Shown here: positions 14,145-41,502 of the stretch, one piece after another
Numbering within the stretch: position 1 is the stretch's first letter
Layout of the letters: every line of letters begins with the position of its first letter
Assembly (NCBI GenBank): GCA_965200745.1
Contig: CBDAUZ010000002.1
Location: forward strand, 199,165-263,164
Direction: 5' to 3'
DNA: 64,000 bases
From: Alphaproteobacteria bacterium
GTDB lineage: Bacteria > Pseudomonadota > Alphaproteobacteria > SP197
Translations under genes and position numbers: made by a program
The notes under the pieces: generated by a model
Database searches by the model: none
What the model was told of the DNA's origin: nothing
Seen by the model: the letters and a program-made list of their open reading frames with translations, nothing else

Positions 14145-14492
14145 TTCCGGCTGTCGTCAACACACGAACATACATGCTTGTCCGGCTCCTTGCGTAAACT
14201 ATCGAAATGATAGCAGACGCAAGAGACCATCCCGGCGTTTGACAGGATTCAAACGGGTGTCATCGAACGCGCCGAATTGCGAAACAAATCACGGTGATCG
14301 ACGTACGGCCGCGCCAACGCTTGTCAACGTCTGAACGCACGGTACAACAACAACTCTTGTATCGGTTGAACTGCTGGAGTTGCCGACATGTCGCGACGGG
14401 AACGGTCTGCTGCGGGACGGCGACGCGCCGATGCGTCCAGAAATCGCAGGCCACAATTGCCATGGGCGACCTTTCGCAATCCCTATCCGCCG

Positions 14493-15926
14493 ATGGAGAT
14501 TGCGAGTGCCGACGAGATAGAGAGCATTCATGACGCGTCGTTGACCGTACTCGAGGAGGTCGGCGTCAACATTCTGCTCGATGAGGCGCGCGACATTCTC
14601 CAGGCCGCCGGTGTTCCGACGACCAGGGGCGAAACCCGCGTTCATATGGACCGCGGATTCATCGAAAGCATGATGAAGGAGACACCTGATATCTGGACAC
14701 TCCACGCCCGAAATCCTGAACGGAACCGGGTATTCGGAGACAACCATGTCAATTTCTTTCCGGTCGCCGGCAATCCGAACGTCGCCGACCTTGAAGGTGG
14801 ACGCCGTTCCGGAACCCTCAAGGACTACCAGGACCTGCTGCGACTGGCTCAGGTCGTCAATGCGGTTCATGGATGCACGCCGATGCTTGAGCCGCTCGAT
14901 GTGCACCCGAACACGCGCTATCTCGATATCGTTGGCGAACAGCTGTTGCTTTCCGACAAGATAGCCTTCGGCTACGCAATCGGGCGACGCAAGATCCTCG
15001 ACGCAATTGAAATGGTGCGAATCGCCAGGGGAATTTCACATGAGGAACTGCAGACGCAGCCCAGCATCTGGACTGTTGTGAACTGCAACTCGCCGCTTCA
15101 GCTCGACATTCCGATGTTGCTTGGCATGATCGAGATGTCGCGGCGAAACCAGGTTATCGTCGTCACGCCATTCACCCTTGCCGGCGCCATGGCACCCGTC
15201 TCGCTGTCCGGCGCCCTGATCCAGCAAAACGCGGAGGCGATCTCCGCGTTGGCCTTCTGTCAGGCTGTCAAGCCGGGGACACCGGTAGTCTACGGCGGGT
15301 TCACGAGCAATGTTGACATGCGTTCCGGCGCACCGGCATTCGGCACGCCCGAATACGTCAAGGCCGTCCTGGTCGGTGGACAACTCGCGCGATTCTACAA
15401 ACTGCCGTACCGTTCGTCAGGTGTCAGCGCCTCGAACTGGCCCGATGCCCAGGCCACATATGAAACCTCCATGTCGCTCTGGGCGACAGTGCTCAGTCAT
15501 ACGAACATGGTCATGCACAGTTTCGGCTGGATGGAGGGCGGACTGCACGCGTCATTCGAGAAGTTCATCATCGACCTCGAAATGGTGCAGACACTCATGA
15601 AGGCCATGGAGCCCATCGATTTCAGTCAACCGGAATCTGATCTCGACGCCATTCGTGAAGTCGGACCGGGCGGACACTATTTCGGAGCGGGACAAACCCT
15701 GGAACTTTATGAAACCGCATTCTATCAACCGATCCTTTCGGACTGGCGAAACTGGCAAACCTGGAAGGACGATGGTGCGGTCGATACGACCCGGCGTGCA
15801 CAACAGGTCTACCGCGATCTTCTGAGGGAATACGAAACGCCGTTCATGGAACCGGCAATCCGGGAGGAGTTGACCGCTTTCATCGATCGACGAAAGCGTG
15901 AGGGAGGCGCAACAGCGGAAGACTGA
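14493..15926 (+). CDS. MttB-superfamily (trimethylamine-methyltransferase-like) protein, non-pyrrolysine type. Likely a quaternary-amine:corrinoid methyltransferase.
   Basis: About 478 aa from MEIASADEIESIHDASLTVLEEVGV, a typical MttB-family N-terminus. TIM-barrel MttB-like core with no in-frame amber codon. The ORF track begins earlier at 14388 in the same frame. Confidence 0.85.
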   Translation: MEIASADEIESIHDASLTVLEEVGVNILLDEARDILQAAGVPTTRGETRVHMDRGFIESMMKETPDIWTLHARNPERNRVFGDNHVNFFPVAGNPNVADLEGGRRSGTLKDYQDLLRLAQVVNAVHGCTPMLEPLDVHPNTRYLDIVGEQLLLSDKIAFGYAIGRRKILDAIEMVRIARGISHEELQTQPSIWTVVNCNSPLQLDIPMLLGMIEMSRRNQVIVVTPFTLAGAMAPVSLSGALIQQNAEAISALAFCQAVKPGTPVVYGGFTSNVDMRSGAPAFGTPEYVKAVLVGGQLARFYKLPYRSSGVSASNWPDAQATYETSMSLWATVLSHTNMVMHSFGWMEGGLHASFEKFIIDLEMVQTLMKAMEPIDFSQPESDLDAIREVGPGGHYFGAGQTLELYETAFYQPILSDWRNWQTWKDDGAVDTTRRAQQVYRDLLREYETPFMEPAIREELTAFIDRRKREGGATAED

Positions 15927-15944
15927 ACGGGAGACGCGTGTCTC

Positions 15945-16679
15945 CTATTCCTCCAGGTTTTTCGGTTCGTGGGCACATTCGCGCACGATCCCGCACTTCC
16001 AGCAGCGTGGCTTGCGGGCAAGACAGGTGTAGCGGCCATGCAGTATCAACCAGTGGTGTGCACCTTTTTTCCACTTCTTCGGCACAATCTCCTCCAGTAA
16101 CCGCTCGACCTTCTCTGGAGTCGTGCCACGCGCCAGCCCGGTTCGATTTGCAACCCGGAAGACGTGCGTGTCCACGGCAATTGTCGGTTCTCCGAACGCT
16201 TCATTCATGACGACGCTGGCCGTCTTGCGACCAACACCGGGCAAACGCTGCAGTTCCTCACGACTGTCCGGAACACGACCGCCGTACTTCTCGATCAGAA
16301 TAGTCGAGAGTGCCGCGATGTTCCTTGCCTTTGCGTTGTACAGGCCGATTGATCGAATCTTGTCGCGAATACCGTCTTCGCCGAGTTTTGCCATCCTTTC
16401 CGGCGTATCGGCTTCATCAAACAGGCCCGGTGTGACGGCGTTGACACTCTTGTCAGTTGCCTGAGCCGATAGAACAACCGAAATCAGGAGTGTGAACGGG
16501 TTGCTGTAATCCAGTTCGGTTGCAGGCGCAGGGTTTTCTCGCGACAGGATGGTGAACAGCCGGTTGGCGAGCCGGACCAACCCGTCGCGTTCAGGATCGG
16601 ACACGGTGAATTCCGTTCTTCGCCACGCGTTCCCGCTTGCGCGTCTCAGTAAACCAGTGCCACGGCACGCACCGGACAC
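15945..16679 (-). CDS. nth: Endonuclease III (Nth), base-excision-repair DNA glycosylase/AP lyase.
   Basis: ELDYSNPFTLLISVVLSAQATDKSVN, LPGVGRKTASVV, HhH-GPD and the C-terminal 4Fe-4S Cys cluster (C-x6-C-x2-C-x5-C). Start is uncertain: ATG 16679 overlaps the upstream cyclase gene by 34 nt; GTG 16604 is an alternative. Confidence 0.9.
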   Translation of the reverse strand: MSGACRGTGLLRRASGNAWRRTEFTVSDPERDGLVRLANRLFTILSRENPAPATELDYSNPFTLLISVVLSAQATDKSVNAVTPGLFDEADTPERMAKLGEDGIRDKIRSIGLYNAKARNIAALSTILIEKYGGRVPDSREELQRLPGVGRKTASVVMNEAFGEPTIAVDTHVFRVANRTGLARGTTPEKVERLLEEIVPKKWKKGAHHWLILHGRYTCLARKPRCWKCGIVRECAHEPKNLEE

Positions 16680-17332
16680 CCCGTGCCGTCACGCATCGAG
16701 AGCGGCAGGCATACAAAGTGAAATTCCTTTCCCTGCAATCGATCGAGATTGCACAATTGCTGAACCATGCAGACGCCCTGCCTGTTCCACACGGCATGCG
16801 TCGGCCACCACCATTCCGCCGGGTCATCCATTCCGATCAGATCCGTGCAGAAGAGAACGATACCGCGGTCCACAAGCCACTGTGCAACGTCTGTCGGGAC
16901 GAATGGCCGGTTCATTGTGAACCCCTCCTTCCCCCAGTCCCTGTCCGTACCGGTCCAAACGATGCACGCCGACTCACCGTTGATCGTACCGCCACTGCGT
17001 TCTTCCGCTGCTTCGAGATCCGCGATGGTGATGGCTTCACCATTCTTCCGATGGGTCAGGTCCAGCAGCAATCCCGGCAGAACCAGTTGCTCGAGCGGCA
17101 CCTGATCGACACTCTTGCCGTTGGCGTCACTGTGCCGCGGGACATCAAGATGCGTGCCGCAATGTTCGGGCATCAGGATCATGCGGCTTTCCATTGCCAT
17201 CTTTCCGCCTGTGATCTCGGACAGATACGCATGGTCGTCGAGCTGGAAGAACGTCACCTGCCCGCCGATGTTCGGCATGTTCGAATACATGGGGTGGGAC
17301 AGATCAACAATTTCCTTGATCGCTGGCAGCAT
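16646..17332 (-). CDS. Cyclase-family protein (kynurenine formamidase / arylformamidase-like, PF04199-type).
   Basis: 228 aa. HxGTHxDxPxH-like motif (HCGTHLDVPRH) and the conserved acidic C-terminal region. GGGAGTGAAG SD. Confidence 0.75.
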   Translation of the reverse strand: MLPAIKEIVDLSHPMYSNMPNIGGQVTFFQLDDHAYLSEITGGKMAMESRMILMPEHCGTHLDVPRHSDANGKSVDQVPLEQLVLPGLLLDLTHRKNGEAITIADLEAAEERSGGTINGESACIVWTGTDRDWGKEGFTMNRPFVPTDVAQWLVDRGIVLFCTDLIGMDDPAEWWWPTHAVWNRQGVCMVQQLCNLDRLQGKEFHFVCLPLSMRDGTGCPVRAVALVY

Positions 17333-17429
17333 GACTTCACTCCCGTCTGGTTGAGGCGCTACACCTTTTCAACAACTTGAATTTTCGATGATGAACGAAC
17401 CCGCGTGCACCGTGATTTCCGCAAACCCG

Positions 17430-18194
17430 TCAAACAGTCGCACGAACACCAGCATGGCTTCCGATCCAGGCCAGGACTTCCTCGATCGAATGCGCTTTCT
17501 GCCCGCTCGGGGGTTGTGGTCGCCTGATCATGATGACCGGAATCCCGCAGGTGCGTGCAGCAATGATCTTTGCTTCGGTCGCCGCTCCGCCACTGGCCTT
17601 TGTCACGAGCGCATCAACTTGAAGATCGCGAAAAAGTGCCTGTTCATCTTCCAGTCGAAACGGCCCGCGCGCCCGCAGGATCTCGATAGCGCCGATCGAT
17701 TCAATACTGACAGGCAATTCAATGACACGCGCTGTCAACCGCATGCCCTGACACTTCGAAAATGCCTCGAGACTGCGATTCCCGGTTGTCAGCAGAACCG
17801 ATGTCGGTTTCATGGAACACAGTGTTTCTGCAGCTTCCGCATAGGTATCGACCTCGATCCAGTTATCGTCTTCAACCCTTTTCCAGTGCGGTCGCACAAA
17901 CTTGATCCGCGGTGTGCCCGTGCGCGCGGCAGCAGTCTCGGCATGCCGCGCCATGATTGCGGCAAACGGATGTGTGGCGTCCACAAGCAAGCCCGTGCCC
18001 GAGTTCCGGATGTACTGCACAAGTCCATCAATACCGCCAAACACGCCACGGCGGACTTCGCCGCAAATGTTGCACGAACCGGCCGTGATACCGGCCAGTG
18101 ACGTCGTGCAGTGAACATCGGGAAACCGTTCAGCGACGGCATTCGAAATTGCCGTTCCTTCCTGTGTACCACCCAGGACCAGAAGTCTTTTCAT
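17430..18194 (-). CDS. cobK: Precorrin-6A reductase / cobalt-precorrin-6A reductase.
   Basis: MKRLLVLGGTQEG...GGFGGIDGL...LLVDATHPFAA...RP.W match the CobK/CbiJ hallmark pattern. Confidence 0.85.
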   Translation of the reverse strand: MKRLLVLGGTQEGTAISNAVAERFPDVHCTTSLAGITAGSCNICGEVRRGVFGGIDGLVQYIRNSGTGLLVDATHPFAAIMARHAETAAARTGTPRIKFVRPHWKRVEDDNWIEVDTYAEAAETLCSMKPTSVLLTTGNRSLEAFSKCQGMRLTARVIELPVSIESIGAIEILRARGPFRLEDEQALFRDLQVDALVTKASGGAATEAKIIAARTCGIPVIMIRRPQPPSGQKAHSIEEVLAWIGSHAGVRATV

Positions 18195-19282
18195 GGACCG
18201 GCCACACCGATTATGTCACCGGCGCGGTTGATGACGACCACATCTATTTCGGTCGATCCCGACAGCGTTGCGATGGCAGTTTCACGGGCGCCGGCTGCAA
18301 CGCGTTCACCCAACGGAACCATCGCTGCAGACGCAATCGCGAGTGCAGCACTTGCGCTGGTTTCATGCCTTATACGACTTTCAACTTCCCTGGACGCACC
18401 GGCATCCCGCGCAAAGGTCGCGAGCCGCGACTGATCGACCTGACTGCGGGACGAATGAAGATCCAGCGCACCCTGGGCAAGTTTTGTCATCTTGCCGATG
18501 CCTCCGGCGATCGTCACGCGTTCAACGGGATGACGCCGCAGATACTTGAGCATACCTCCGACGAAGTCGCCCATATCGATCAGTGCACCGTCACTCAGAT
18601 CGTGATACGCACGGATAACCTGTTCTGAAGTCCGTCCCGTTGAACCGGCAATGTGAGAAAGACCCTCCGCCCGGGCAACATCAATGCCCTGGTGAATTGA
18701 TGCAATCCATGCCGAACAGGAATACGGAACAACAATTCCCGTTGTGCCCAGAATCGACAGTCCACCGACGATACCCAACCGTGGATTCCATGTCTGTTGC
18801 GCCAGTTGCTCGCCATCCACCACGCCGATCGTGATCTGGAGGTCGTGCCGATGCGCGAACCGGTCGGCCAGTTCCTCGATTGCGCTTTCAATCATCCGGC
18901 GCGGACCGGGATTGATGGCCGGCTCACCCGGTTCGACCGGCAAGCCCTGTTTTGTGACGATTCCGACGCCTTCGCCGGCCCTGAATTGAACACCGGTCCC
19001 GTCATCTCCGTAGCTGATCTGGACCACAACTTCCGCGCCATTCGTCACGTCCGGATCGTCGCCTGCATCCTTGACGACTGATGCCATGGCGCACTGATGA
19101 CGGAGTTCCGATCTATGAACCTGAAACACAGGTTCCTGTCCGCGTGGCAGGGTCACGGTAACAGATCGGGGAATGTTGCCCGTCGCCAGTCCCTCATATG
19201 CGGCGGCGGCCGCCGCCATCGCACAGGCGCCTGTAGTCCAGCCCTTTCGTAAGTTCGTGGTGGCTGTCATGCGACCCACCAA
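18191..19282 (-). CDS. cbiD: Cobalt-precorrin-5B (C1)-methyltransferase CbiD. Fills the CobF role in Rhodobacter-type aerobic pathways.
   Basis: LRKGWTTGACAMAAAAAA is the CbiD signature N-terminus; 363 aa. A 4-nt overlap with cobK indicates a cbiD-cobK operon. Confidence 0.85.
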   Translation of the reverse strand: MVGRMTATTNLRKGWTTGACAMAAAAAAYEGLATGNIPRSVTVTLPRGQEPVFQVHRSELRHQCAMASVVKDAGDDPDVTNGAEVVVQISYGDDGTGVQFRAGEGVGIVTKQGLPVEPGEPAINPGPRRMIESAIEELADRFAHRHDLQITIGVVDGEQLAQQTWNPRLGIVGGLSILGTTGIVVPYSCSAWIASIHQGIDVARAEGLSHIAGSTGRTSEQVIRAYHDLSDGALIDMGDFVGGMLKYLRRHPVERVTIAGGIGKMTKLAQGALDLHSSRSQVDQSRLATFARDAGASREVESRIRHETSASAALAIASAAMVPLGERVAAGARETAIATLSGSTEIDVVVINRAGDIIGVAGP

Positions 19283-19365
19283 TCAGCAACGGAGACGACG
19301 TCGGATTGCACAACGCGCATTCTTCAACGCCATGCTGATCGGGCGAGAGTGGCCATCTGATGATG

Positions 19366-19411
19366 CGACGTCACAGGACGCCCCCGACCGACGTCACAGG
19401 ACGCCCCCGAC
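19366..19411. repeat. Perfect tandem duplication of a 23-bp unit (CGACGTCACAGGACGCCCCCGAC x2) in the cbiD/cobA divergent intergenic region.
   Basis: Read directly from the sequence: 19366-19388 equals 19389-19411. Each unit contains the palindrome GACGTC. Confidence 0.9.
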
Positions 19412-19544
19412 GTTTTGAACAATCTGCAATGTGCATGATACTTGACGTTCTCCGGGTCGTCGTATGTGTATTCGGCCACTGTACGCTATCGTGCAGAAGG
19501 AAATACAACCTTCCGGTCATGTTACATCAGTATCAGGCAGTTGC

Positions 19545-20375
19545 ATGTCCACGAACACGTTTCCACACATGCCCGAGTTCAGGCCCGGCTGGGTCTGGCT
19601 GGCAGGAGCCGGCCCCGGCGATCCCGGTCTCCTCACTCTGCTGACGCTACATGCGTTGCGTCACGCAGACTTCGTTGTGTACGACGCGCTTGTCGACCAG
19701 TGCGTCCTTGAGCTTGCCCGTCCGGTAGCCGAAAGAATTTATGCGGGAAAGCGCGGTGGCAAACCGTCGCCTGTTCAACCTGATATCTCGCGCAAGCTCG
19801 TTGAACTCGCGCGATCCCGGAAGCGCGTGCTTCGTCTGAAAGGTGGCGACCCGTTCGTTTTCGGACGCGGAGCTGAAGAGTGTCGTGCACTTGCGGAAGC
19901 CAACATTCCCTTTCGAGTCGTTCCGGGTGTGACGGCCGGGATAGGCGGACTCGCGTATGCAGGGATTGCCGCAACGGATCGGCGAACCAATCATGCGATC
20001 ACATTCGTCACAGGTCGCCTGGCAGGAGGCGCAACACCGGACGACTTGAACTGGGCAACGCTCGCTGGTGAGGGACACGCACTGGTGATCTATATGGCGC
20101 TCTCGAAACTGGCGCAGATCACACGAACACTGCTTGACGGCGGTCTGTCACCCGAAACGCCGGTTGCCATTGTCAGCCGCGCGACCACGCGTGACCAGAA
20201 GGTCATTCATACAAACCTGCATCGCGCCGCAGAGGCAGCCCGCCTCGCCGACTCTCCCGCGATTGTCGCCATTGGTGCGTTTGCACATGATCAACCTGCA
20301 CTCAACTGGTTTGACACGGTCGTGGCTACGCTGCCGGCTGATGCAAACCGCATGGAACACGGTGGGGATTCGTGA
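19545..20375 (+). CDS. cobA: Uroporphyrinogen-III C-methyltransferase (SUMT).
   Basis: VWLAGAGPGDPGLLTL, LKGGDPFVFGRGAEE, VVPGVTAG are the SUMT/CysG methyltransferase motifs. Start chosen at ATG 19545; alternatives are 19464 or 19569. Confidence 0.85.
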   Translation: MSTNTFPHMPEFRPGWVWLAGAGPGDPGLLTLLTLHALRHADFVVYDALVDQCVLELARPVAERIYAGKRGGKPSPVQPDISRKLVELARSRKRVLRLKGGDPFVFGRGAEECRALAEANIPFRVVPGVTAGIGGLAYAGIAATDRRTNHAITFVTGRLAGGATPDDLNWATLAGEGHALVIYMALSKLAQITRTLLDGGLSPETPVAIVSRATTRDQKVIHTNLHRAAEAARLADSPAIVAIGAFAHDQPALNWFDTVVATLPADANRMEHGGDS

Positions 20376-21685
20376 CCCGCGGAATCATCATCACGGCCCC
20401 TGCAAGCGGCTCGGGGAAGAGTGTCGTGACCATGGCCCTCTTGCGGGCACTGCTCCATCGCAAGCAGAGGGTTGCAGCATTCAAGACCGGCCCCGACTAC
20501 ATCGACGGTGCGTTTCATGCCGTCGCCGGCTGCCTGCGTTGTCGTTCGCTTGATCCCTGGTGCATGTCGAGATCGCGCCTGCATCATGAGTATGCGCGGT
20601 TGTCGGATGGCGCGGATATCGTTGTCGGTGAAGGAACCATGGGGTTGTTCGACAGCAGCCTGGACGGCACCGGGTCGACTGCTGATCTTGCCACAGTTCT
20701 CGGGTTGCCCTGTGTGCTTGTCGTGAACACCCGGGGTCTGGGCGCCTCCGTTGCCGCACTTGTCGAGGGTTTTCATCATCATCGAAAGCAGGTGTCGATC
20801 GCCGGCGTCATACTCAACCAGGTATCAAGCGCAAGGCATCTGAAAATTCTCGAACTGGCCATGAATGGTGTCGCACCGGTGTTCGGTCATCTCTCGAATT
20901 TGCCGGAATTTCGCCTTCCTCATCGACACCTGGGACTGGTGCAGGCCATTGAACACGAGGATCTCGAAGTCTGGCTTGAGCACGCGGCGACCAGGGTTGC
21001 CGAGACGCTCGATCTGGATGCGCTCATCAGCGTGGCCAGGGAAGCCGGCACGACAGTCGGGAATGCCGTCATGGAACCCGTATTGCCTCTCGGCCAGCGC
21101 ATATCCATTGCGCACGATTCAGCCTTCGCATTCTGTTATCCCACAATCGTCGACGACTGGCGGGACGCCGGCGCAGAAATCACCTGGTTTTCCCCGCTTG
21201 CCGATGAAGGTCCGCATCCCGAAGCCGATGCGGTTTATCTACCCGGAGGTTATCCGGAACTCCATGCAGCAACACTGTCGTCGAACCGGCGATTTCACGA
21301 CAGTCTCAGAGAGGCGGCATCACAGGGTGCGTTCGTCTACGGCGAGTGCGGTGGATACATGGCGCTTGGCGACACTCTCATTGATGCAGACGGGAACGGT
21401 CACCCGATGGCCGGGCTCCTGCCTATCTGCACATCGTTTGCAAAACCGCGTCGGCATCTGGGTTATCGACAACTGAAACTCGAAACAACATGTCAACTCG
21501 GCACCTCCGGTACGGCGTTGCGTGGCCATGAGTTTCATTACGCCACACTGGAAACACCCAGCGGACCGCATCTGTTTTCGTGCAAGGCGGCAGACGGTTC
21601 CGATCTTCCGGATGCCGGCACCGTCGTTGGCAACGTCGCAGGCTCGTTTTGCCATGTTGTCGATCGGTATGCGCCTGAATGCTGA
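20372..21685 (+). CDS. cobB: Cobyrinic acid a,c-diamide synthase (CobB/CbiA).
   Basis: 437 aa. N-terminal ATPase domain (APASGSGKSVVTMALLRAL) and C-terminal glutamine-amidotransferase domain (YGECGGYMALG). Start overlaps the cobA stop. Confidence 0.9.
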   Translation: MTRGIIITAPASGSGKSVVTMALLRALLHRKQRVAAFKTGPDYIDGAFHAVAGCLRCRSLDPWCMSRSRLHHEYARLSDGADIVVGEGTMGLFDSSLDGTGSTADLATVLGLPCVLVVNTRGLGASVAALVEGFHHHRKQVSIAGVILNQVSSARHLKILELAMNGVAPVFGHLSNLPEFRLPHRHLGLVQAIEHEDLEVWLEHAATRVAETLDLDALISVAREAGTTVGNAVMEPVLPLGQRISIAHDSAFAFCYPTIVDDWRDAGAEITWFSPLADEGPHPEADAVYLPGGYPELHAATLSSNRRFHDSLREAASQGAFVYGECGGYMALGDTLIDADGNGHPMAGLLPICTSFAKPRRHLGYRQLKLETTCQLGTSGTALRGHEFHYATLETPSGPHLFSCKAADGSDLPDAGTVVGNVAGSFCHVVDRYAPEC

Positions 21686-21872
21686 CGATCAAACCGGCAG
21701 CGGACATTTTTTCGGCGTATCACAATCTTGTCGTAACCGGTTTGCGTGTTGAAACCGTTCCGAGCTTCGAGTAATTCGTTTTCGCGTTGCTTTTCATTGC
21801 AATAGGCTCGGCATGATGCCGACACGGCCGCAAGCCAAATCATCATCTTCGAGGTGAACCATTTCAACGCAA

Positions 21873-23216
21873 GTGCAGGCAGCATCTGGCGCCTTTGACG
21901 GTTATCGCAGGACCATCAACGGTGAACACGACGAGTTTCTGGTTCGCGTCGGTCCCGGTACACCTGCTGGTGAGTATCTGCGAAGATTCTGGCACCCCGT
22001 TGCAATCAGTTCCGAGCTTGGTGACCACCCACAGGGTACGAGAATCCTCGGTGAGGATCTCGTCATCTTTCGCGATGGATCAGGCCAGGTCGGGCTGGTC
22101 CACCGCCGGTGCCCGCATCGCAGGGCCTCGCTGGAGTTCGGAATCTGCGAACGCCGTGGCATACGCTGCTGCTACCATGGATGGCTCTTTGATGTTGACG
22201 GTACCATTCTGGAAATACCGGGACAGGCCGATGGGGTCGTTTCCCGGGTATCAAGGAACACGCGTCTCGGTGCGTATCGCACGCTGGAGTACAAGGGCCT
22301 CGTATTCGCCTATCTCGGTCCACCGGAACTGGCTCCGGAGTTTCCCGTATACGATACGCTCGTCATGGACGGGCACGACATGGTTCCCTACCAGGCGCCT
22401 TTCGCCTGTAACTGGTTGCAGGTGCAGGATGCAATTCTCGATCCGCTGCATACGGCGTTTCTTCACTCGCGCGTCAGCCGGGAACAGTTTTCCAAGGGGT
22501 TTGGTGAAATTGGCGAGATGAAATTCTATGAACGCGGCAGAGGGTTTCTGGGGACTGCAACGCGTCGTGTCGGCCAGAATGTCTGGGTACGCGTGAATGA
22601 GCTTGTGCTGCCAAATTTCACGCAGGCGGGCGCAGCATTTGCGGTGGACGGCACACACCCGTGCTACTTCGGGAGATCAAGTTTCGCGCGGTGGGTTGTA
22701 CCGATTGATGACCACAACACGAACTGTCTTGCCTGGGCGATCTTTGGTGAACGCGGTGACCCGCACGCGTACAACACACCCGAAGGCCCGGAACTGATCG
22801 AACAGGGAGAACTGTTCGATCGACCCTGGCAGCAGCGCCAGCGCTTTCCGGGGGATCGTGAAGCGTGCGAGGGCATGGGCACGATCACTGAACACAGCAA
22901 GGAAAACCTTGTGCCAAGCGACAAGGGCATCCAGATGTACCGACGCCATCTGCGTCGTGAGATCCGGGCGTTGGCCGATGGCCGGGAACCGCCGAAAGTG
23001 ACGGATGCCGGTCTGAACCCGGTCCCCACCTATGGCGGCGATACGGTTCTTCAGGTTCCGCGCAGGGAAAACGATCGATCGATACTTGCGCGATACGGCA
23101 GCGCTGTGATGGACGCGCAATTCAGGTCCGAAGAGTTGCCACTGGATGAGCGGGATATGCAGATCATCGCGGATCTCAAACTGATCGAACAACGCGGGTA
23201 CCAGGCATGCGCGTAA
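21873..23216 (+). CDS. Rieske [2Fe-2S] non-heme-iron oxygenase, alpha (catalytic) subunit. No beta-subunit gene is adjacent.
   Basis: Rieske motif CPHRRASL...CCYHGW. Mononuclear iron site NWLQVQDAILDPLHTAFLH (D-x2-H-x4-H). N-terminal YLRRFWHPVAISSEL is typical of the GbcA/CntA/Stc2-like alpha3-type oxygenases. GTG start. Confidence 0.85.
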   Translation: MQAASGAFDGYRRTINGEHDEFLVRVGPGTPAGEYLRRFWHPVAISSELGDHPQGTRILGEDLVIFRDGSGQVGLVHRRCPHRRASLEFGICERRGIRCCYHGWLFDVDGTILEIPGQADGVVSRVSRNTRLGAYRTLEYKGLVFAYLGPPELAPEFPVYDTLVMDGHDMVPYQAPFACNWLQVQDAILDPLHTAFLHSRVSREQFSKGFGEIGEMKFYERGRGFLGTATRRVGQNVWVRVNELVLPNFTQAGAAFAVDGTHPCYFGRSSFARWVVPIDDHNTNCLAWAIFGERGDPHAYNTPEGPELIEQGELFDRPWQQRQRFPGDREACEGMGTITEHSKENLVPSDKGIQMYRRHLRREIRALADGREPPKVTDAGLNPVPTYGGDTVLQVPRRENDRSILARYGSAVMDAQFRSEELPLDERDMQIIADLKLIEQRGYQACA

Positions 23217-24223
23217 AGGTGCACGTCAAGAACAATCGGGCACGCCCGGGCGGGTTTCCGCCGACGCCGGAGGCAGAACCGGTCTTCACCACGACCCGCG
23301 AACGCTTCGACGCAGTGTTGTCGGAGTTTCCCGATCTTGCCGACAAGATCGACGTGTTCATTGATTGGGATGTCGACAATTTCCGGACTTCGATGCGTGA
23401 GGCCTCTGTCCTGCTGACCTGGGACCTGCCAACCGAAAACATTGCTGCCGTCGCACCGGAATTGAAATGGATTCACATCATTGGCGCAGGCGTCGAGCAC
23501 CTTTGTCCAATGAACTGGGTTCCCGACGGTGTGACCGTGACCAACAACAAGGGTGCACAGGCAGAAAAGGCGGGCGAATTTGGTGTCATGGCCGTGCTGA
23601 TGCTGAATTGCAAGATACCCGCCATCGCCTCGAACCAGAGAAAGGCACAGTGGGAATCCCTGTTCTCGACACCGGTTTCGGGCAAGACCGTCCTGATCGC
23701 CGGTGTTGGCCATCTCGGTGGCAGCGCCGCAAACCGCCTCAGGGAGATGGGCCTGAAGGTTCTCGGCATCAATCGATCGGGTCGTGCGCACGACGGGGTC
23801 GACGAAATGGGGACCTGGTCAGATCTGGAAGCATTTCTGCCTCGTGCCGACTTCTTGCTCGTCGCGCTACCTGCGACGCCATTGACCGGCAACCTGCTTG
23901 ACCGTGATCGACTGGCACTGCTGAAAGACGGCGCAGGCGTGATCAACATCGGTCGGGCTGCAACAATGGATTATGACGCGCTTTGCGACATGCTCCGCAA
24001 CGGACAACTGTCAGGTGCCATTCTCGATGTCTTCGAACCGGAACCGCTCCCTGCGGCATCACCGTTGTGGGAGACCCCGAACCTTCTGATCCTGCCACAT
24101 GTTTCGTCCGACGACGGTGACACATATGTCGAGACGACACTGAGAATATTCCTTGCAAACATGCGCCGTTTCCTTGCGGGAAACCAACTCGAAAACAGAG
24201 TTCGACCCGAACTCGGATACTGA
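23207..24223 (+). CDS. D-isomer-specific 2-hydroxyacid dehydrogenase family, NAD(P)-binding.
   Basis: Rossmann motif VLIAGVGHLGGSAANRL and catalytic-region segments RAATMDYDAL...ILDVFEPEP...LILPHVSS. Overlaps the Rieske gene stop by 10 nt. Confidence 0.85.
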   Translation: MRVKVHVKNNRARPGGFPPTPEAEPVFTTTRERFDAVLSEFPDLADKIDVFIDWDVDNFRTSMREASVLLTWDLPTENIAAVAPELKWIHIIGAGVEHLCPMNWVPDGVTVTNNKGAQAEKAGEFGVMAVLMLNCKIPAIASNQRKAQWESLFSTPVSGKTVLIAGVGHLGGSAANRLREMGLKVLGINRSGRAHDGVDEMGTWSDLEAFLPRADFLLVALPATPLTGNLLDRDRLALLKDGAGVINIGRAATMDYDALCDMLRNGQLSGAILDVFEPEPLPAASPLWETPNLLILPHVSSDDGDTYVETTLRIFLANMRRFLAGNQLENRVRPELGY

Positions 24224-24244
24224 ACCTCATTCCAGGAGAATGTC

Positions 24245-25672
24245 ATGATCCGCTATTGTGAACCACAGACCATGAAGGACGCGATTGCCTCGCCCGAACG
24301 CATTGCGGAAACCGGCGAATGGCTGAGAAAGAACGGCGTACGCTATGTCCTGTGCTGCTGGATCGACCTTTTTGGACAGCCCAAGACAAAACCCGTGCCG
24401 ATCAGCGATTGGGAGCGACTGTGTGCAGGAAACGGCCCGCAGTTTGCCGTACACTCTGTCTCATTCGTACCTGAACTCGGGCCCGCAGACCCGGACCAGA
24501 TCATGGTTCCGGATCTTGACTCCCTCCTCCTGTGTCCCTGGGACAAGTCAAGTGCGTGGGTGTTTGCCGATTTGTGGTGGCAGGACAAACCCTACAGCCA
24601 TTGTCCACGCAGCACGCTCAAACGAATACTCCGCGAATGTGAGGCACAGGGCTATCACGTCTATGCGGGTATTGAACCCGAATTCATTGTCATGCGCTGG
24701 AAGGACGGGCATCCGGTCAAGGCGATGGACAACGACCCGGCTCCTGGAGAAGGAATACGTCCACGCCGCCAGGCGTTCGGATATGACGTCGAGTACTCGA
24801 TTGATTCGATGGGTTTTCTCGGTGACATGATCGAGATTCTCGACAACGTGCTCGATTGGGATCTCCACGACGTCGTCGCCGAGGGCGCATACAGCCAGTT
24901 TGAACTCGACTTTGGCTACACCGACGCGCTGGGTATGGCCGACAGGTTGGTCTTCCTGCGCATACTTCTGAAGGAAGTCGCCAAGAAACATGGAATGTTC
25001 GTCACTTTCATGCCCAAGCCCACAATCGGCGACTGGCGTTCAGGAGCGCACATAAACGCATCCATGCGACATGTTGACACGCCGGATGAGAATCTCTTCG
25101 AAACCGCGGAAGGAAACTGGTCGAGCGAGGCACTCCACGCGGTTGGGGGACTCTTGCGGCATGGTGGCGCCTTGACCGCGATTGCCTGTTCAACGGTCAA
25201 TTCCTACAACGGACTTGTTCCGCGGGTCGGCGGATTTGAGGGTGGCACTGTCACCTGGGCGCCAACTCACATGACCTATGGCTACAACAATCGCTCGGCG
25301 ATGCTTCGCTTGCCGCAAAATCGGTTCTGTATCGAAAACCGGGCTGCCGACATGTGCATGAACCCCTATCTGTCCCTGGGCGTTACGGCTGCCAGCATGA
25401 CGCGTGGGATTGTCGAGAAACTCGATCCCGGAGCGCCGCTCAACGAGGACCTCTATTCTCTGAGCGAGGCCGATATTGCCGCGTCCGGGGCACAACGGCT
25501 GCCGCAAAACCTCCTCGAAGCCGCATTGACCTTGCGCGAAGACGATTTTGTTCGTGATACGATTGGCTCCGGAATGCACAAGTCATTCCTCGAATACAAG
25601 TTCGACGAATGGGAACGATATCACCAGGCAGTGACGGACTGGGAGGTTCAGGAATACCTGAGACTATACTGA
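24245..25672 (+). CDS. Glutamine-synthetase-family ligase (GS-like; gamma-glutamyl-amine synthetase type, as PuuA/GmaS/IpuC/AtdA1).
   Basis: 475 aa. GS catalytic-domain motifs (GIEPEFIV, ...HINAS..., NRSAMLRLP). AGGAGA SD 7 nt before ATG 24245. Confidence 0.85.
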   Translation: MIRYCEPQTMKDAIASPERIAETGEWLRKNGVRYVLCCWIDLFGQPKTKPVPISDWERLCAGNGPQFAVHSVSFVPELGPADPDQIMVPDLDSLLLCPWDKSSAWVFADLWWQDKPYSHCPRSTLKRILRECEAQGYHVYAGIEPEFIVMRWKDGHPVKAMDNDPAPGEGIRPRRQAFGYDVEYSIDSMGFLGDMIEILDNVLDWDLHDVVAEGAYSQFELDFGYTDALGMADRLVFLRILLKEVAKKHGMFVTFMPKPTIGDWRSGAHINASMRHVDTPDENLFETAEGNWSSEALHAVGGLLRHGGALTAIACSTVNSYNGLVPRVGGFEGGTVTWAPTHMTYGYNNRSAMLRLPQNRFCIENRAADMCMNPYLSLGVTAASMTRGIVEKLDPGAPLNEDLYSLSEADIAASGAQRLPQNLLEAALTLREDDFVRDTIGSGMHKSFLEYKFDEWERYHQAVTDWEVQEYLRLY

Positions 25673-26688
25673 TGGCGAACAGTTACGAGCGTTTTGATCT
25701 CGGTGATGTCACCCTCCAGTCCGGCGAGGTCATGCGAGACGCATGGCTGGCGTACAAGACATGGGGTGACCTGAATGACAGGCGGGACAACGCGGTTCTG
25801 ATACCGACCTATTTCACCGGTACGCATGAAAACAATGAAGCATATTTCGGTCGCGGACGGGCGATCGATCCAGCGCGGCACTTCGTCATTTCTGTCAACC
25901 TGTTCGGGAACGGATTTTCCAAGTCTCCCAGCAACTCCGGACAACCGGGCTGCGGCTCGGACATGCCGGCTGCCACCTACCACGACAATGTGGCTTGCCA
26001 GCATCGGCTCGTGACCGAACGATTGCGTGTACGCAAGTTCGCACTCGTCACCGGCTGGTCGATGGGTGGTTGTCAGACGTTCGAATGGGGCGTCCAGTTT
26101 CCCGACATGATGGAGGCTCTTCTGCCATTTTGCGGTTCAGCCCGAACCGCGCCACACAACAAGGTCTTTCTGGAAGGCGTCAAGGCGGCGCTGTGCGCCG
26201 ATCCCGTCTGGAATGACGGGCGCTACACCGAACAACCGATCGTCGGATTGAGGGCGTTCGCACGGGTTTATGCGGGATGGGCGTATTCCCAGACCTGGTA
26301 TCGCAATGGCCGATTTCGAGAACTCGGGCACGACACGATCGAGGACCTGTTGGTCGATTGGGAAAACGATCACGTGGACAACTGGGACGCAAACGATCTC
26401 CTTTACAAATTGAATACTTGGACGAACGGTGATGTCAGTGCCAATGCGAAACACAACGGCGATCTCAGAGGTGCCCTGGGTGCCGTCAGGGCACGGTGCA
26501 TCGTCATGCCCTGCTCTACCGATCTCTACTTTCCGCCTGAGGACAACGCGATAGAGGTTGGATACATGCCGCAGGCAGAATTGCGACCGTTTGAAACCGA
26601 GTGGGGGCACTGTGCGCCAAGCGGTACAGCGGTTCCCGCATTTCACCGCTTTTATGACGAAGCCGTGCGCGATTTACTCAACGGTTGA
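25672..26688 (+). CDS. Homoserine O-acetyltransferase (MetX)-like alpha/beta-hydrolase-fold acyltransferase/hydrolase.
   Basis: Nucleophile elbow GWSMGG, MetX-family N-terminal region (LAYKTWGDLN...AVLIPTYFTGTHE) and C-terminal His region. ATG overlaps the GS-like stop (TGATG). Confidence 0.8.
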   Translation: MANSYERFDLGDVTLQSGEVMRDAWLAYKTWGDLNDRRDNAVLIPTYFTGTHENNEAYFGRGRAIDPARHFVISVNLFGNGFSKSPSNSGQPGCGSDMPAATYHDNVACQHRLVTERLRVRKFALVTGWSMGGCQTFEWGVQFPDMMEALLPFCGSARTAPHNKVFLEGVKAALCADPVWNDGRYTEQPIVGLRAFARVYAGWAYSQTWYRNGRFRELGHDTIEDLLVDWENDHVDNWDANDLLYKLNTWTNGDVSANAKHNGDLRGALGAVRARCIVMPCSTDLYFPPEDNAIEVGYMPQAELRPFETEWGHCAPSGTAVPAFHRFYDEAVRDLLNG

Positions 26689-26878: not shown

Positions 26879-27982
26879 TCACTGCCAGGACAGCGCTTCA
26901 AGATTCCGGAAATCTTCGTCTATCCCGAACGCACGTGGTCCAATGAATTCCATGGCCTCAGGGCTGCGCATGTTTGCTGTTGCAGCGATTGCGACGGCCT
27001 TTACGCGCTGACCGTAACGCAAGTTCTCGGTGGTTATGGGCTCGCCAGTTTCACGATCCAGAATTGTTATCAGGTCAGGCACGATAGCGAGTGTTTTCTC
27101 GCCAATGGAGGCCCGGGAGAATTCATTCTGGAAGGTGATCAGCATCTCCATGTTCGGATCGTCCAGCGCTGAAATCCGTGCCTTGCCCACCGCGAAGCCC
27201 GCCGTCGTCTCACGCAAGACGTCCTGAACCTTGCCATCAAAAATGACAGAGGCAAAACGCGGGGGATTGGATGTCTTGAAATATCTGACGAGGGCTTCGC
27301 AGACGTCTTCGGTTCCTGCGCTTCTGGCTTCGCGAAGGGCAGCGCCGATCTCTATGGCCAACGACACTGTTCGCGGAACACATGTGTCGCGCATCATGGG
27401 CCCGCTCATCGGATAACTTGCGCATTGTGAGATCCCGCCCATCTGCACGCAGACAGGACGGCCGTATCTTTCGGTGCGGAGGGCGGCATCGGTTTTCAAG
27501 AGCACGGTATTTCCGAAGTCGTCCGACATGACGAACGGATTTATGTCAGCACCGTAGATGTTGAAAGTCGTCATCTGGAACTCCGGGAATGCGCGCCCCA
27601 TGCCGTCCCCATCGACAACTGGCATGCCGCGACGTGCAGCAACGACCAAAGGAATTGTCGCGTTAATTCCCCCGGCTTCCAATGGAATGATGCAATTGAA
27701 TCTGCGGTCCAGTTCCTTTTCAGCTCGTTCCATTGACGTGATCATTGCCGACGCGTTGGGCAGCTTCTCGACAAAGGCCGTCGGTGCGCCCATACAAGCC
27801 AATGTTATGCCGAAGTGGTCTTCGGTCAGCTCATCGGGATCGAGCAATCTGATTTCGCCGCACTTCTCAAGTTCCTGGCTGAGCATGAGACGACCGATGT
27901 AAGGGTCGCCACCACCGCCCGTGCCCAAAAGTGCGGTGCCACGAATGAAGTCTTCCAGGTTCTCCGGGTTGATCGAGGTCAT
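26879..27982 (-). CDS. DUF917-family protein (hydantoinase-associated).
   Basis: LLGTGGGGDPYIG... is the DUF917 hallmark. 4-nt overlap with the upstream hydantoinase-like gene. Confidence 0.75.
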   Translation of the reverse strand: MTSINPENLEDFIRGTALLGTGGGGDPYIGRLMLSQELEKCGEIRLLDPDELTEDHFGITLACMGAPTAFVEKLPNASAMITSMERAEKELDRRFNCIIPLEAGGINATIPLVVAARRGMPVVDGDGMGRAFPEFQMTTFNIYGADINPFVMSDDFGNTVLLKTDAALRTERYGRPVCVQMGGISQCASYPMSGPMMRDTCVPRTVSLAIEIGAALREARSAGTEDVCEALVRYFKTSNPPRFASVIFDGKVQDVLRETTAGFAVGKARISALDDPNMEMLITFQNEFSRASIGEKTLAIVPDLITILDRETGEPITTENLRYGQRVKAVAIAATANMRSPEAMEFIGPRAFGIDEDFRNLEALSWQ

Positions 27983-29538
27983 GACGCGGTTCTCGGTTCG
28001 GCAAGGTTTCCAATGGCCTTGGCCTTGATCCTGACGGCACCACCGGGAAGATAGGCGAGCGGAACCTCTTCAAGGCTCAGGATTTCGGTGGTCTCCAGAT
28101 GAGCTCCTGCGGCAACGGCCCGTTCGACGGCTTCCTCTTTTGCCAGGCTCATTGCGTGATCTCGACCGACCTCTTCATATGAGAAGATCTTGTCGACCTC
28201 CCCTCCCACCTGAGCAAGACCTGCCCCGATTGCGTTTGCCACGCCGGCGTTCTCAGGGCGAAGAACTTCACTGGCTCCGGCAATGTTTCGGTCTACAAGG
28301 ATCGTACCGCCGCCGACCAGTATAACCGGCACTGCGCCCTGACTGGACTTTACCTTGTCGACTGTGTCTTCGAGTTTCTTGTGGATCTCGTCCAGGGTCG
28401 CGTCGATCAATTCGCAGCTCAGATGCTCAACCCTGGATCTCTCTCCAATGTCAGCCTGACCCGCCGCGACAGCGACATCGGTTGTGGTCAGCGTGTCGCC
28501 GCCAAAGACCAGGGCTTTTTCCGTCAGCTTCAAGGCAACAGAGTCCGGCCCCACGGTCACACCGTCAGGCGTTTCTCGCACGATGCTGCCACCACCAAGT
28601 CCCACGGACAGGATGTCCGGCATGCGGAAATTGGTCCGGACAGAGCCAATATCCACTGCGAGTGCGCTTTCCCGCGGGAACCCGTCCTTCAACACGCCGA
28701 CATCAGATGTGGTTCCACCAATGTCGATGACGACCCCTTCCTTTACACCGGACAGGAAGGCTGCACCGCGCATGGAATTCGTTGGACCGGAGGCGAAGGT
28801 AAGTACCGGGTACTTCTCGGCAAACTCCGCGATCATCAATGTTCCGTCATTCTGCGAGATGAAAAAGGGACATGTGAGGTTCAGGTCTGCCAGCGCCGAA
28901 CGGAAAGCGTTCACGACGATCCTTGACAGTTCTGCCAGTGACGCATTCATGATCGCAGCGTTTTCTCGTTCGATCAGCCCTACCCGCCCGATCTCACTTG
29001 AGAGGGTCAGGAGGGTATCAGGCACTTCGTCGCGAATGATCTCGGCGATACGCTTTTCGTTTGATCCGTTGATCGGTGAAAATACACCGGAGATCGCTGC
29101 GGATGTGATGCCTTTTGCCTTCATGTCGCGCGCCGCTTCGCTCACCGCGGCTTCGTCCAGAGCCCGGATCTCGCGTCCGTCGAACTCGTACCCGCCGCCG
29201 ACCAGATAGGAAACCTGGCCAATTGCAGTGCGCAGATGTGGCGGAAAATCTGCCATTGGCAGAAGGCTCTCCGTGGCGGGCAACGACGCACGAAATGTGG
29301 CGACAGGAACAAGTCGTTTGCCTTCGATAAATGCGTTCGTGAACTGGGTCGTGCCGATCATGACGCTGGAGATTCCATCCGGTTTGACACCGGATTGGAA
29401 CAAAACGCTTTGAACAGCGGCGATTACACCGGATGCGACGTCTTCAGTTGTCGGCGATTTGATGGAAGCAACAACCTTCTCCCCGTCAATCAGCGCAGCG
29501 TCAGTATTTGTGCCACCAACATCAACTCCAATGTGCAT
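27979..29538 (-). CDS. Hydantoinase/oxoprolinase-family protein (HyuA-like, ASKHA-fold ATPase).
   Basis: MHIGVDVGGTNTDAALI start, plus second sugar-kinase-like motifs VVIDIGGTTSDVG...LGGGS. GAGGAGA SD. Confidence 0.8.
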   Translation of the reverse strand: MHIGVDVGGTNTDAALIDGEKVVASIKSPTTEDVASGVIAAVQSVLFQSGVKPDGISSVMIGTTQFTNAFIEGKRLVPVATFRASLPATESLLPMADFPPHLRTAIGQVSYLVGGGYEFDGREIRALDEAAVSEAARDMKAKGITSAAISGVFSPINGSNEKRIAEIIRDEVPDTLLTLSSEIGRVGLIERENAAIMNASLAELSRIVVNAFRSALADLNLTCPFFISQNDGTLMIAEFAEKYPVLTFASGPTNSMRGAAFLSGVKEGVVIDIGGTTSDVGVLKDGFPRESALAVDIGSVRTNFRMPDILSVGLGGGSIVRETPDGVTVGPDSVALKLTEKALVFGGDTLTTTDVAVAAGQADIGERSRVEHLSCELIDATLDEIHKKLEDTVDKVKSSQGAVPVILVGGGTILVDRNIAGASEVLRPENAGVANAIGAGLAQVGGEVDKIFSYEEVGRDHAMSLAKEEAVERAVAAGAHLETTEILSLEEVPLAYLPGGAVRIKAKAIGNLAEPRTAS

Positions 29539-36451: not shown

Positions 36452-36461
36452 GCCTGTTCTC

Positions 36462-37346: not shown

Positions 37347-37355
37347 CGCGTGACC

Positions 37356-41130: not shown

Positions 41131-41502
41131 GACCTATGTCTTTCCGGCCCGGTTACGCAAAACGATGTCCTTTCAGTCCATAGCCCGGATTGCGTGACAA
41201 AATCCAGTTTCGACAGCGTCACTCAACCACGGACTCCCGGCGGCGACAACCTTGCCGCATCGGGCAAACCGGGTTGCTCAACGATACCCGACCGGCTTCA
41301 CGCGGAGTCAGTGGTGCTCCACAGGGGATCGTCGAATCATGCGCGTCCGATGGACGCACGCAGTCTGCGTATCCCTGTTTGCGATCCGTCGACCGGATTT
41401 CTGTTCGGGTTCAATTGTCCCGATTGCATGTGTTGACGCTGCATGCCCTGCTGCAAGATAGTGCCAACCGCATGGCATTTCTGCGACCTGAACGGTGATT
41501 CA

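Follow-up and report, generated by a model that had tools for sequence, protein, structure and literature searches.

A conserved marine operon of a Rieske oxygenase, a 2-hydroxyacid dehydrogenase, a glutamine synthetase-like ligase and a MetX-fold hydrolase that may degrade a small amine-bearing compound

Attaching an acid to an amine, oxidising the tagged compound and then removing the tag is a catabolic logic with precedents. In the aniline and 1-naphthylamine systems (AtdA1-A5, TdnQTA1A2B and NpaA1-A5), a Rieske oxygenase is encoded alongside a glutamine synthetase (GS)-like ligase and a hydrolase, and the ligase turns the amine into an amide on which the oxygenase acts (PMC11335346); these systems act on aromatic amines and use an alpha plus beta Rieske oxygenase of the naphthalene family, a dedicated reductase and a GATase-type hydrolase. 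In the ethanolamine pathway (Phaeobacter MED193_10026-10056, Chromohalobacter, and GlnA4 of Streptomyces), a GS-like enzyme puts the tag on, two oxidations follow and an amidohydrolase takes the tag off, ethanolamine gamma-glutamylase being paired with a gamma-glutamylglycine amidohydrolase and the genes lying beside a TRAP transporter in marine bacteria (PMC10132767). Here we describe an operon from an alphaproteobacterial contig (CBDAUZ010000002.1), of which we analysed one 64-kb stretch, hereafter the window, that encodes a Rieske oxygenase, a D-2-hydroxyacid dehydrogenase (HADH), a GS-like ligase and a MetX-fold alpha/beta hydrolase (ABH), and whose products may work on the same principle as the pathways for aniline, isopropylamine, putrescine and ethanolamine. 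Full-text literature searches returned no published description of this four-gene combination, in agreement with the initial annotation of the stretch, which had regarded it as undescribed.

The grouping of the four genes is not due to chance. We searched annotated contigs and 80 genome loci with the window proteins and counted linkage in the 45 loci in which the Rieske gene is flanked by 8 kb or more in both directions. Beside that gene we found HADH in 40 loci, the GS-like gene in 24, ABH in 23 and the GS-ABH pair in 21; ABH thus accompanies the GS-like gene in 21 of the 24 fully flanked loci that have the latter, and the module occurs in at least 12 different gene orders. Carriers include single-cell genomes of Pelagibacteraceae, SUP05/Thioglobus/Pseudothioglobus, Arenicellales, sponge symbionts (Poriferihabitaceae and Spongiihabitans), metagenome-assembled genomes (MAGs) of Rhodospirillales, and Rhodobacterales including Ruegeria lacuscaerulensis and Pontibaca salina. 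Some homologue clusters have hundreds of metagenomic members, Tara samples among them, and the listed members of the large clusters are nearly all metagenome sequences. Linkage across such distant marine lineages, with the order of the genes shuffled, marks the four as a genuine conserved functional group.

Relatives of the window locus capture how this group came together. One 4.2-Mb genome carries Rieske-HADH and GS-ABH 1.7 Mb apart on the same chromosome (L007 and L010). At L010, and at L096, GS-ABH adjoins cobalamin-synthesis (cob) genes like those of the window, on the opposite strand, and Rieske-HADH is not there; the neighbours in L096 are cobB, cobA, cbiD, cbiJ, a cyclase and an HhH-GPD gene. 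GS-ABH in both loci also adjoins a bona fide O-acetylhomoserine aminocarboxypropyltransferase (784 bits, cutoff 636), a small PcaD-like hydrolase, TauD and MTTB. Because these relatives keep GS-ABH by the cob genes without Rieske-HADH, we read the window operon as the joining of two pairs, and the comparison of L096 and L010 with window positions 15945-26688 is a snapshot of operon assembly. That the pairs have been joined in several arrangements argues for a shared function. At L007, a reverse transcriptase gene (RVT_1, 14639-16259) lies by a bAvd gene about 3 kb from Rieske-HADH, apparently as part of a diversity-generating retroelement. In a SAR11 single-cell genome (L070, 5534-6548), ABH is split into two open reading frames (ORFs) of 169 and 185 aa by a frameshift or an assembly error.

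In the window, ORF coordinates and the junctions as read in the sequence bear out the four tightly packed, co-directional genes described at 21873-26688, and Pfam and NCBIfam uphold the family calls for all four products (Rieske, 2-Hacid_dh_C, Gln-synt_C and PRK07581; Table 1). The ATG of HADH (23207) overlaps the TAA of the Rieske gene (23214-23216) by 10 nt, and HADH is translationally coupled to that gene. The HADH stop codon (TGA, 24221-24223) is followed by a gap with an AGGAGA motif and then by the GS-like ATG (24245), while TGATG at 25670-25674 holds both the GS-like stop and the ABH start in a 1-nt overlap. The overlap and the TGATG junction stand as first reported, whereas the gap, given as 22 nt, is 21 nt by our reading. 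The longest ABH ORF opens at 25609, and the ATG at 25672 is the start that matches the homologues. The four genes are thus packed in the manner of one transcription unit, and each of their products retains its catalytic residues; the same contig, with an identical operon, recurs in three sequencing runs. The leader contains no promoter-like site on the forward strand, promoter and terminator scans scoring no higher than shuffled sequences; no terminator signal above the shuffled background was found in the operon, and no riboswitch or other RNA element upstream of or inside it matched Rfam at E <= 1. No LysR or AsnC regulator gene adjoins the operon in the window, unlike in other genomes, where such genes recur beside the module and lie divergently upstream of it in L094, L095, L099 and L023.

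Table 1. Coordinates of the operon, its leader and the insert found in related loci; positions are those of the window unless a locus is named.
Feature	Position	Strand	Description
Rieske oxygenase	21873-23216	+	447 aa, GTG start
D-2-hydroxyacid dehydrogenase (HADH)	23207-24223	+	338 aa, Pfam 2-Hacid_dh_C
GS-like ATP-dependent ligase	24245-25672	+	475 aa, Pfam Gln-synt_C
MetX-fold alpha/beta hydrolase (ABH)	25672-26688	+	338 aa, NCBIfam PRK07581
Leader, cobB to operon	21686-21872	+	187 nt intergenic; presumed promoter/regulatory region
gmaS-mgsABC insert in module	L023 1465-5722		SUP05/Pseudothioglobus; also L022, L032 and L033

The sequence of the GS-like protein makes it almost certain that this enzyme is a ligase other than glutamine synthetase. 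It matches Gln-synt_C at 7e-79, scores 348.5 against TIGR03105 (cutoff 469.6) and 264 against the GlnA model TIGR00653 (cutoff 429), and finds its nearest solved relatives in the glutamate-methylamine ligases GmaS (9qur, 9e-66; 7cql, 5e-60), ahead of 8wwu (2e-36), which we suspect to be of the NpaA1 type. We mapped its residues in S. typhimurium numbering against an E. coli GlnA reference sequence and PDB sequences; the cross-check against PDB alignments covered the 264/265 and 320/321 motifs, and D50 and Y179 rest on the E. coli reference. The metal ligands (E129, E131, E212, E220, H269 and E357) and the phosphate/ATP arginines (R339, R344 and R359) are all kept. The ammonium-site residues, by comparison with the E. 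coli reference, are replaced in this protein and in all aligned family members (D50A and Y179G). Canonical GS, whether type I GlnA or type III GlnT, was accordingly rejected, with both models missed and the ammonium site lost; the initial annotation had set the ligase apart from canonical GS and had singled out a GlnA-type III identity in advance as the contrary case, and the TIGR03105 score rules that identity out.

The acid-binding site is also rebuilt. In GS, N264-G265 and K320-R321 hold the alpha-carboxylate and alpha-amino groups of glutamate; in the GS-like family the former pair has become W-R (GDWRSGAHIN) and the latter N-G (NSYKRL to NSYNGL), and both remodelled motifs (GDWRSG and NSYNGL) are present in 38 of the 38 family members of the fetched loci. 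The likeness to GmaS and the N-methylglutamate pathway is partial. GmaS is the closest solved relative, ammonium-site residues are altered in both, and in SUP05 the module has gmaS-mgsABC inside it, whereas the module ligase misses the TIGR03105 cutoff, is about 33% identical to co-resident GmaS-like paralogues and has NSYNG and W-R where GmaS has NSYKR and a T/P-G pair, NSYKR being kept in 9qur, 7cql and those paralogues. The ligase is conserved more strongly than the Rieske protein: its best 120 homologues are 69-81% identical, and identity across Pelagibacteraceae, SUP05/Thioglobus, Arenicellales, sponge symbionts and roseobacters is 62-81%. Of the gamma-glutamylation first proposed for this enzyme, the amine-ligase part is reasonable, because the ammonium-site residues (D50A, Y179G) are lost and the GS equivalog cutoffs missed, while glutamate is unproven as the acyl donor, because R321 and N264-G265 are replaced (NSYNGL, and W-R for N-G).

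The partner of the ligase, ABH, belongs to the NCBIfam MetX-like 'hypothetical protein' subfamily PRK07581 (433 bits, cutoff 332) and falls well short of the true MetX models TIGR01392 (150.5, cutoff 500) and PRK00175 (140, cutoff 331), on which ground canonical homoserine O-acetyltransferase MetX was rejected. Its nearest solved structures are 5d6o (3e-66) and 5e4y (2.5e-58), with 2vat (3e-30) third; the first two carry their depositors' name homoserine O-acetyltransferase and are the HTA-like acetyl esterases CgHle and MekB. ABH shares their serine nucleophile elbow (GWSMGG; all 29 sequences compared have GWSM[AG]G) and differs from them in its membership of PRK07581, an uncharacterised subfamily. 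The earlier call of a MetX-fold acyltransferase/hydrolase is right as to the fold, and MetX proper falls away, the equivalog cutoffs being missed and 5d6o/5e4y being closest.

The Rieske protein is, from its sequence features, an alpha-only oxygenase of the phthalate/LigXa type. It matches Pfam Rieske at 2.2e-17 and LigXa_C at 26.5 bits against a gathering cutoff of 27, and precomputed Pfam assignments give PF19301 for most homologues. The cluster ligands C80-x-H82...C99-x-x-H102 and the mononuclear-iron motif D190-x2-H193-x4-H198 are kept in 69-70 of 70 family members; homologues number thousands, the best 120 being at least 61% identical. The nearest solved structures are alpha-only enzymes of the phthalate-4,5-dioxygenase type (7fhr, 3e-47; 7fjl, 1e-40; 9ina, 1e-40), followed in the PDB by DdmC, NdmA and carbazole dioxygenase at about 1e-13. 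An N-terminal resemblance to GbcA, CntA and Stc2 had been proposed and proves wrong: CntA aligns over residues 38-148, the Rieske domain alone (2e-8), Stc2 (3vca) is not among the PDB matches at E <= 0.01, no GbcA-type NCBIfam match was found, and affiliation with this clade was rejected for want of full-length similarity to a characterised member. With the phthalate family (phthalate 4,5-dioxygenase, LigXa, DdmC and VanA) the protein shares its best matches, the alpha-only make-up and the Rieske and 2-His-1-carboxylate motifs; it differs in that the alignment is limited to its N-terminal 200-290 residues, in having no partner reductase gene and in a module context of aliphatic N/S-osmolyte catabolism, not aromatic acids. 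Pfam scans of the ORFs called across the window returned no Rieske beta subunit, reductase or ferredoxin, consistent with the earlier remark that the alpha subunit has neither a beta subunit nor a reductase beside it. HADH was considered as the missing reductase and rejected from first principles, as it has no flavin or iron-sulfur domain.

HADH matches 2-Hacid_dh_C at 4.9e-47 and PDB 3hg7 at 5e-40, and its catalytic triad (R250/E279/H298) and GVGHLG motif can be read from the sequence. It lies below the cutoff of every NCBIfam equivalog tested (GhrA, GhrB, SerA, LdhA, PdxB, FDH and Ddh), the best score being Dhydh_Halo at 173.5 versus 400. GVGHLG is followed by N-R-S-G-R with no Asp, and [NS]-[RK]-x-G is kept across the family. 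In Rossmann folds of the GhrA/GhrB type, such a motif without Asp signals NADP(H) and a reductase in vivo, and we infer that HADH is of the NADP type and acts as a reductase in the cell. The same motif weakens D-lactate oxidation as a candidate role.

In other genomes the module is larger. Clustering the ORFs of all loci revealed three more recurrent genes, encoding a second Rieske protein (371 aa), a VOC protein (140 aa) and an EutQ-like cupin (135 aa). The second Rieske protein aligns nearly full length with the carnitine monooxygenase CntA (9e-30 over residues 21-350), in contrast to the window protein, and the window has no such gene. The VOC protein is a genuine glyoxalase I, GloA (1f9z, 3e-39; 4mtq, 2e-40), and lies within the module in 14 of the 45 loci. 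The canonical SAR11 order is <ABH <GS <cupin <GloA <Rieske2 >Rieske >HADH. The N-methylglutamate-pathway genes gmaS and mgsABC separate ABH from GS in Pseudothioglobus and three SUP05 MAGs. Glycerate kinase follows HADH in nine SUP05 loci, and tartronate-semialdehyde (2-hydroxy-3-oxopropionate) reductase (TSR) directly follows it in four loci (L099, L048, L060 and L033), whose hosts are Alisedimentitalea scapharcae (by PGAP annotation), Ruegeria lacuscaerulensis, Pontibaca salina and one SUP05 MAG. TSR and glycerate kinase downstream point to a C2/C3 acid as the end product, which the initial annotation had not foreseen. The window itself contains none of the second CntA-like Rieske, gloA, cupin, TSR, glycerate kinase and gmaS-mgsABC genes.

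The surroundings of the module vary. Transporters adjoining it in various genomes are of the TRAP, TAXI-TRAP, TTT, NMT1-type and peptide-type ABC, and MFS families; their binding proteins include those of the NMT1-type ABC systems in L098 and L099, a TAXI protein in SAR11 (L075) and DctP in L008 and L098. The wider islands hold methylated-amine and betaine genes (MTTB, OpuAC/ProVWX, DMGDH/Sox, carnitine dehydrogenase and FMN/FAD demethylase-like), guanidino-compound hydrolases and sulfonate-related genes (TauE, TauD and Xsc-like thiamine pyrophosphate (TPP) enzymes); no kind is constant, and we treat them as hints only. MTTB genes recur near the module in L010, L096, L097 (two copies), L098, L019 and L089. 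Just beyond ABH in SAR11 (L075, 1140-5365; also L063, L071, L072 and L074) lie a luciferase-like monooxygenase, an Xsc/acetolactate-synthase-like TPP enzyme, a PF06684 'AA_synth' protein and a small PcaD-like hydrolase, and GS-ABH at L010 is also flanked by a related TPP enzyme (41%) and a small hydrolase. In L070, a TauE sulfite exporter gene and an MFS transporter gene follow the split ABH.

The operon probably degrades a small nitrogen-bearing acid towards glycerate. In the specific reading that we favour, to which we give a probability of roughly one in three (0.35), the four genes act as one operon on a small amine-bearing C2-C3 compound that is tagged, oxidised and untagged and ends at glycerate. 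The GS-like enzyme would use ATP to link the amino group of the substrate to an acid, masking the amine as an amide; by analogy with GmaS, PuuA, AtdA1 and ethanolamine gamma-glutamylase this acid would be glutamate, despite the remodelled site. The Rieske monooxygenase, reduced by an unlinked general reductase, would then hydroxylate the carbon beside the substituted nitrogen, and collapse of the hemiaminal would release the nitrogen as an amide (glutamine if the tag is glutamate) and leave a reactive carbonyl at the level of a 2-oxoaldehyde, glyoxylate or tartronate semialdehyde. The NADP-type HADH would at once reduce the adjoining 2-oxo group; elsewhere TSR and glycerate kinase could take the product to phosphoglycerate, and glyoxalase I may deal with the 2-oxoaldehyde where the CntA-like second Rieske is present. 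Finally ABH would take off the tag or hydrolyse a (thio)ester intermediate, as GATase-type hydrolases do in gamma-glutamylation pathways. Candidate substrates are alpha-aminoketone or isoserine-type amines such as 3-aminopyruvate/isoserine, aminoacetone and 5-aminolevulinate.

Compared with the described systems, the pairing of GS-like ligase and ABH mirrors the ligase and hydrolase pairs AtdA1/AtdA2 and NpaA1/NpaA2, and aniline dioxygenase sets a precedent for Rieske oxygenation of a gamma-glutamyl amide (PMC11335346); the pairing likewise mirrors that of ethanolamine gamma-glutamylase and its amidohydrolase (PMC10132767). Of the aniline-dioxygenase-type set (ligase, GATase-like hydrolase, alpha and beta subunits, reductase), the window offers only a GS-like ligase and an alpha-only Rieske of another family, the phthalate/LigXa type; it has no reductase, its hydrolase is MetX-fold, HADH is added, the end product of the module would be aliphatic and at the glycerate level, and the ligase is nearer to GmaS than to 8wwu. 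Where the ethanolamine pathway employs alcohol and aldehyde dehydrogenases and gamma-glutamylglycine amidohydrolase, this module has a Rieske oxygenase, an NADP-type HADH and a MetX-fold hydrolase, a difference that implies a substrate without a pre-existing hydroxyl, or cleavage of a C-N bond. With the glyoxalase/glycerate pathway (GlxR/GarR and GlxK) the extended module shares a true GloA, a D-specific 2-hydroxyacid enzyme and, downstream, TSR and glycerate kinase, and a MetX-like thioester-handling fold could conceivably stand in for glyoxalase II; the window operon differs in having no gloA, TSR or glycerate kinase gene.

Several observations weigh against a single tag, oxidise and untag operon. 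The glutamate-holding residues R321 and N264-G265 are gone from the GS-like family, and the ligase may use an acyl donor other than glutamate. In roughly half of the loci with Rieske-HADH, GS-ABH is missing within 10 kb, Rieske-HADH standing alone in 27 loci, and conversely the operon of Leisingera thetidis (Rieske2-gloA-cupin-GS-(NMT1-type ABC transporter)-ABH) is without the LigXa-type Rieske/HADH pair. A cognate FNR-type/[2Fe-2S] reductase is absent from the scanned window ORFs, and no reductase is linked to the module, or conserved near it, in the related loci examined; the operon contains no GATase-type gamma-glutamyl hydrolase; we know of no amidase activity in the PRK07581 MetX-like subfamily; and the NADP preference of HADH is read solely from its motif.

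Some of these points fit better with two separate two-gene units that share an island and a regulon, in which Rieske-HADH would cleave the C-N (or C-O) bond of an untagged N-substituted C2/C3 acid to give glyoxylate or tartronate semialdehyde and a free amine, the ligase would capture the amine as an amide, as GmaS does with methylamine, and ABH would process the amide. Besides the 27 loci with Rieske-HADH alone, the GS-ABH pair standing alone beside MetY, TauD and MTTB in L010 and L096 favours such a division, as do the gmaS-mgsABC genes between ABH and GS in SUP05, a GmaS-like gene near the module in Pontibaca, the closeness of the ligase to GmaS, and neighbours that are often methylated-amine or betaine genes (MTTB, OpuAC/ProVWX, DMGDH and carnitine dehydrogenase). 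Yet SUP05 has both a GmaS-like and a module GS-like gene, which are then not redundant, amide-recycling enzymes of the Mgs/Mgd type are absent from the minimal window operon, and the repeated independent joining of the pairs suggests more than shared regulation; we regard this arrangement as a real though doubtful possibility.

Oxygenolytic desulfonation of C3 (or C2) sulfonates seems unlikely. HADH would convert 3-sulfopyruvate (from cysteate) to (R)-sulfolactate, the Rieske enzyme would hydroxylate C3 to yield sulfite and tartronate semialdehyde, the latter going on to glycerate, and GS-ABH would handle the amino group of an amino-sulfonate like taurine or cysteinolic acid. The Rieske oxygenases methanesulfonate monooxygenase and 4-sulfobenzoate dioxygenase do remove sulfonate groups. 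The module has a TauE sulfite-exporter gene beside it at L070 and L095, L010, L096 and L062 contain TauD-family genes, the TPP enzymes near GS-ABH in SAR11 and L010 have sulfoacetaldehyde acetyltransferase (Xsc) as their best or near-best NCBIfam match, below cutoff, an aminotransferase lies beside HADH in SAR11, and TSR and glycerate kinase downstream would also fit; however, these sulfonate-related neighbours are sporadic, none is in the window, and the ligase has no clear role in the minimal four-gene operon. The adjoining transporter families (TRAP, TTT, NMT1-type ABC and MFS) are known for sulfonates, but TRAP/TTT/TAXI neighbours do not prove that the substrate is an anion: EtoX, a TRAP binding protein, has ethanolamine as its ligand (PMC10132767). 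Among other leads, homarine catabolism was set aside because the published homABCDER operon consists of different genes and its paper mentions neither a Rieske nor a GS enzyme, and leads on methanesulfonate monooxygenase and sulfoquinovose proved irrelevant.

A broader, ocean-wide and hitherto unrecognised route is similarly improbable. Here a GS-fold ligase with its remodelled acid site (W-R/N-G) would depart from the canonical use of L-glutamate, and one or two Rieske enzymes would oxidatively strip a nitrogen or sulfur substituent from a C3 osmolyte-like compound. The carbon would then travel by way of a reactive dicarbonyl, on which the coupled NADP-type HADH, glyoxalase I and a MetX-fold thioesterase would act, and end as glycerate or a D-2-hydroxyacid; the substrate could be an amino-sulfonate, a diaminopropionate/BMAA-type amino acid or the head group of a betaine lipid. 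If true, it would be a new substrate for SAR11, SUP05 and sponge symbionts.

We give very little weight to a biosynthetic or tailoring module, in which the Rieske enzyme would add a hydroxyl, the MetX-fold enzyme would O-acylate it from acyl-CoA (compare CefF/CefG of cephalosporin), the ligase would make an amide and HADH would set a 2-hydroxy stereocentre: deacetylcephalosporin C acetyltransferase (2vat) is the third-best solved relative of ABH, and GS-ABH adjoins O-acetylhomoserine aminocarboxypropyltransferase in L010 and L096, while uptake transporters, LysR/AsnC regulators and glycerate-pathway and glyoxalase genes in streamlined SAR11 and SUP05 form a catabolic signature and no other biosynthetic genes recur with the module. 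Chance adjacency of a housekeeping GS isoenzyme and MetX with an unrelated oxygenase and dehydrogenase, which the generic annotations 'glutamine synthetase' and 'homoserine O-acetyltransferase' would permit, is already contradicted by the missed GS and MetX cutoffs, the lost ammonium site and the linkage in 21 of 45 loci across classes with shuffled order, and its likelihood is close to nil. What probability remains belongs to functions outside these readings.

Other parts of the window also carry genes of interest. Upstream of the operon, on the reverse strand, lies a gene for a 794-aa fusion of an APH-type kinase and a class-III aminotransferase (11760-14144), an architecture that resembles pairs of amino-alcohol kinase and O-phospho-amino-alcohol phospho-lyase. 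A non-pyrrolysine MTTB-family methyltransferase (14388-15926, forward strand) scores 620 bits against Pfam MTTB, below the trimethylamine-specific equivalog, and is adjoined by the cobalamin-synthesis genes cbiJ, cbiD, cobA and cobB (17430-21685); a CbtA cobalt transporter is found further on (60240-60938). The genes 3' of the operon are convergent on the opposite strand (26879-29538) and encode a DUF917/S-Me-THD-like protein and a hydantoinase-A-only protein (519 aa), with no hydantoinase B and a weak match to thiohydantoin desulfurase models. Elsewhere on the forward strand (41443-43987), an Amidohydro_2 gene overlaps with another GS-like gene (Gln-synt_N_2 plus Gln-synt_C), which is unrelated to the operon ligase, with 25% identity, and lies beside reverse-strand genes (35132-41130) for a branched-chain-type ABC transporter, a class-III aminotransferase, an N-formylglutamate amidohydrolase, a PhyH dioxygenase and an M24 peptidase; together they look like another ligase/hydrolase cluster for amine catabolism. 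A gene for the flavin-dependent thymidylate synthase ThyX adjoins one for a 298-aa HNH endonuclease (44057-45995, reverse strand).

Although its logic has precedents, the module has three elements that are genuinely new: the glutamate site of its GS-fold ligase is rebuilt, its phthalate-type Rieske oxygenase is alpha-only and coupled to a 2-hydroxyacid reductase of the NADP type, and the ligase has a MetX-fold hydrolase for a partner. The question of the substrate is directly testable because cultured carriers exist (Leisingera thetidis BMJM1, plasmid NZ_CP109788.1; Alisedimentitalea scapharcae KCTC 42119, plasmid NZ_CP123586.1; Ruegeria lacuscaerulensis; and Pontibaca salina). Its identity would explain in what way nitrogen, and perhaps also sulfite or methylamine, is set free, and would reveal the roles of the rebuilt-site GS-fold enzyme and of the PRK07581 MetX-like subfamily. 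The retention of a conserved five-to-seven-gene module in the streamlined genomes of SAR11 implies that the substrate is important in the sea, and knowing it would extend the short list of known SAR11 and SUP05 nutrients.

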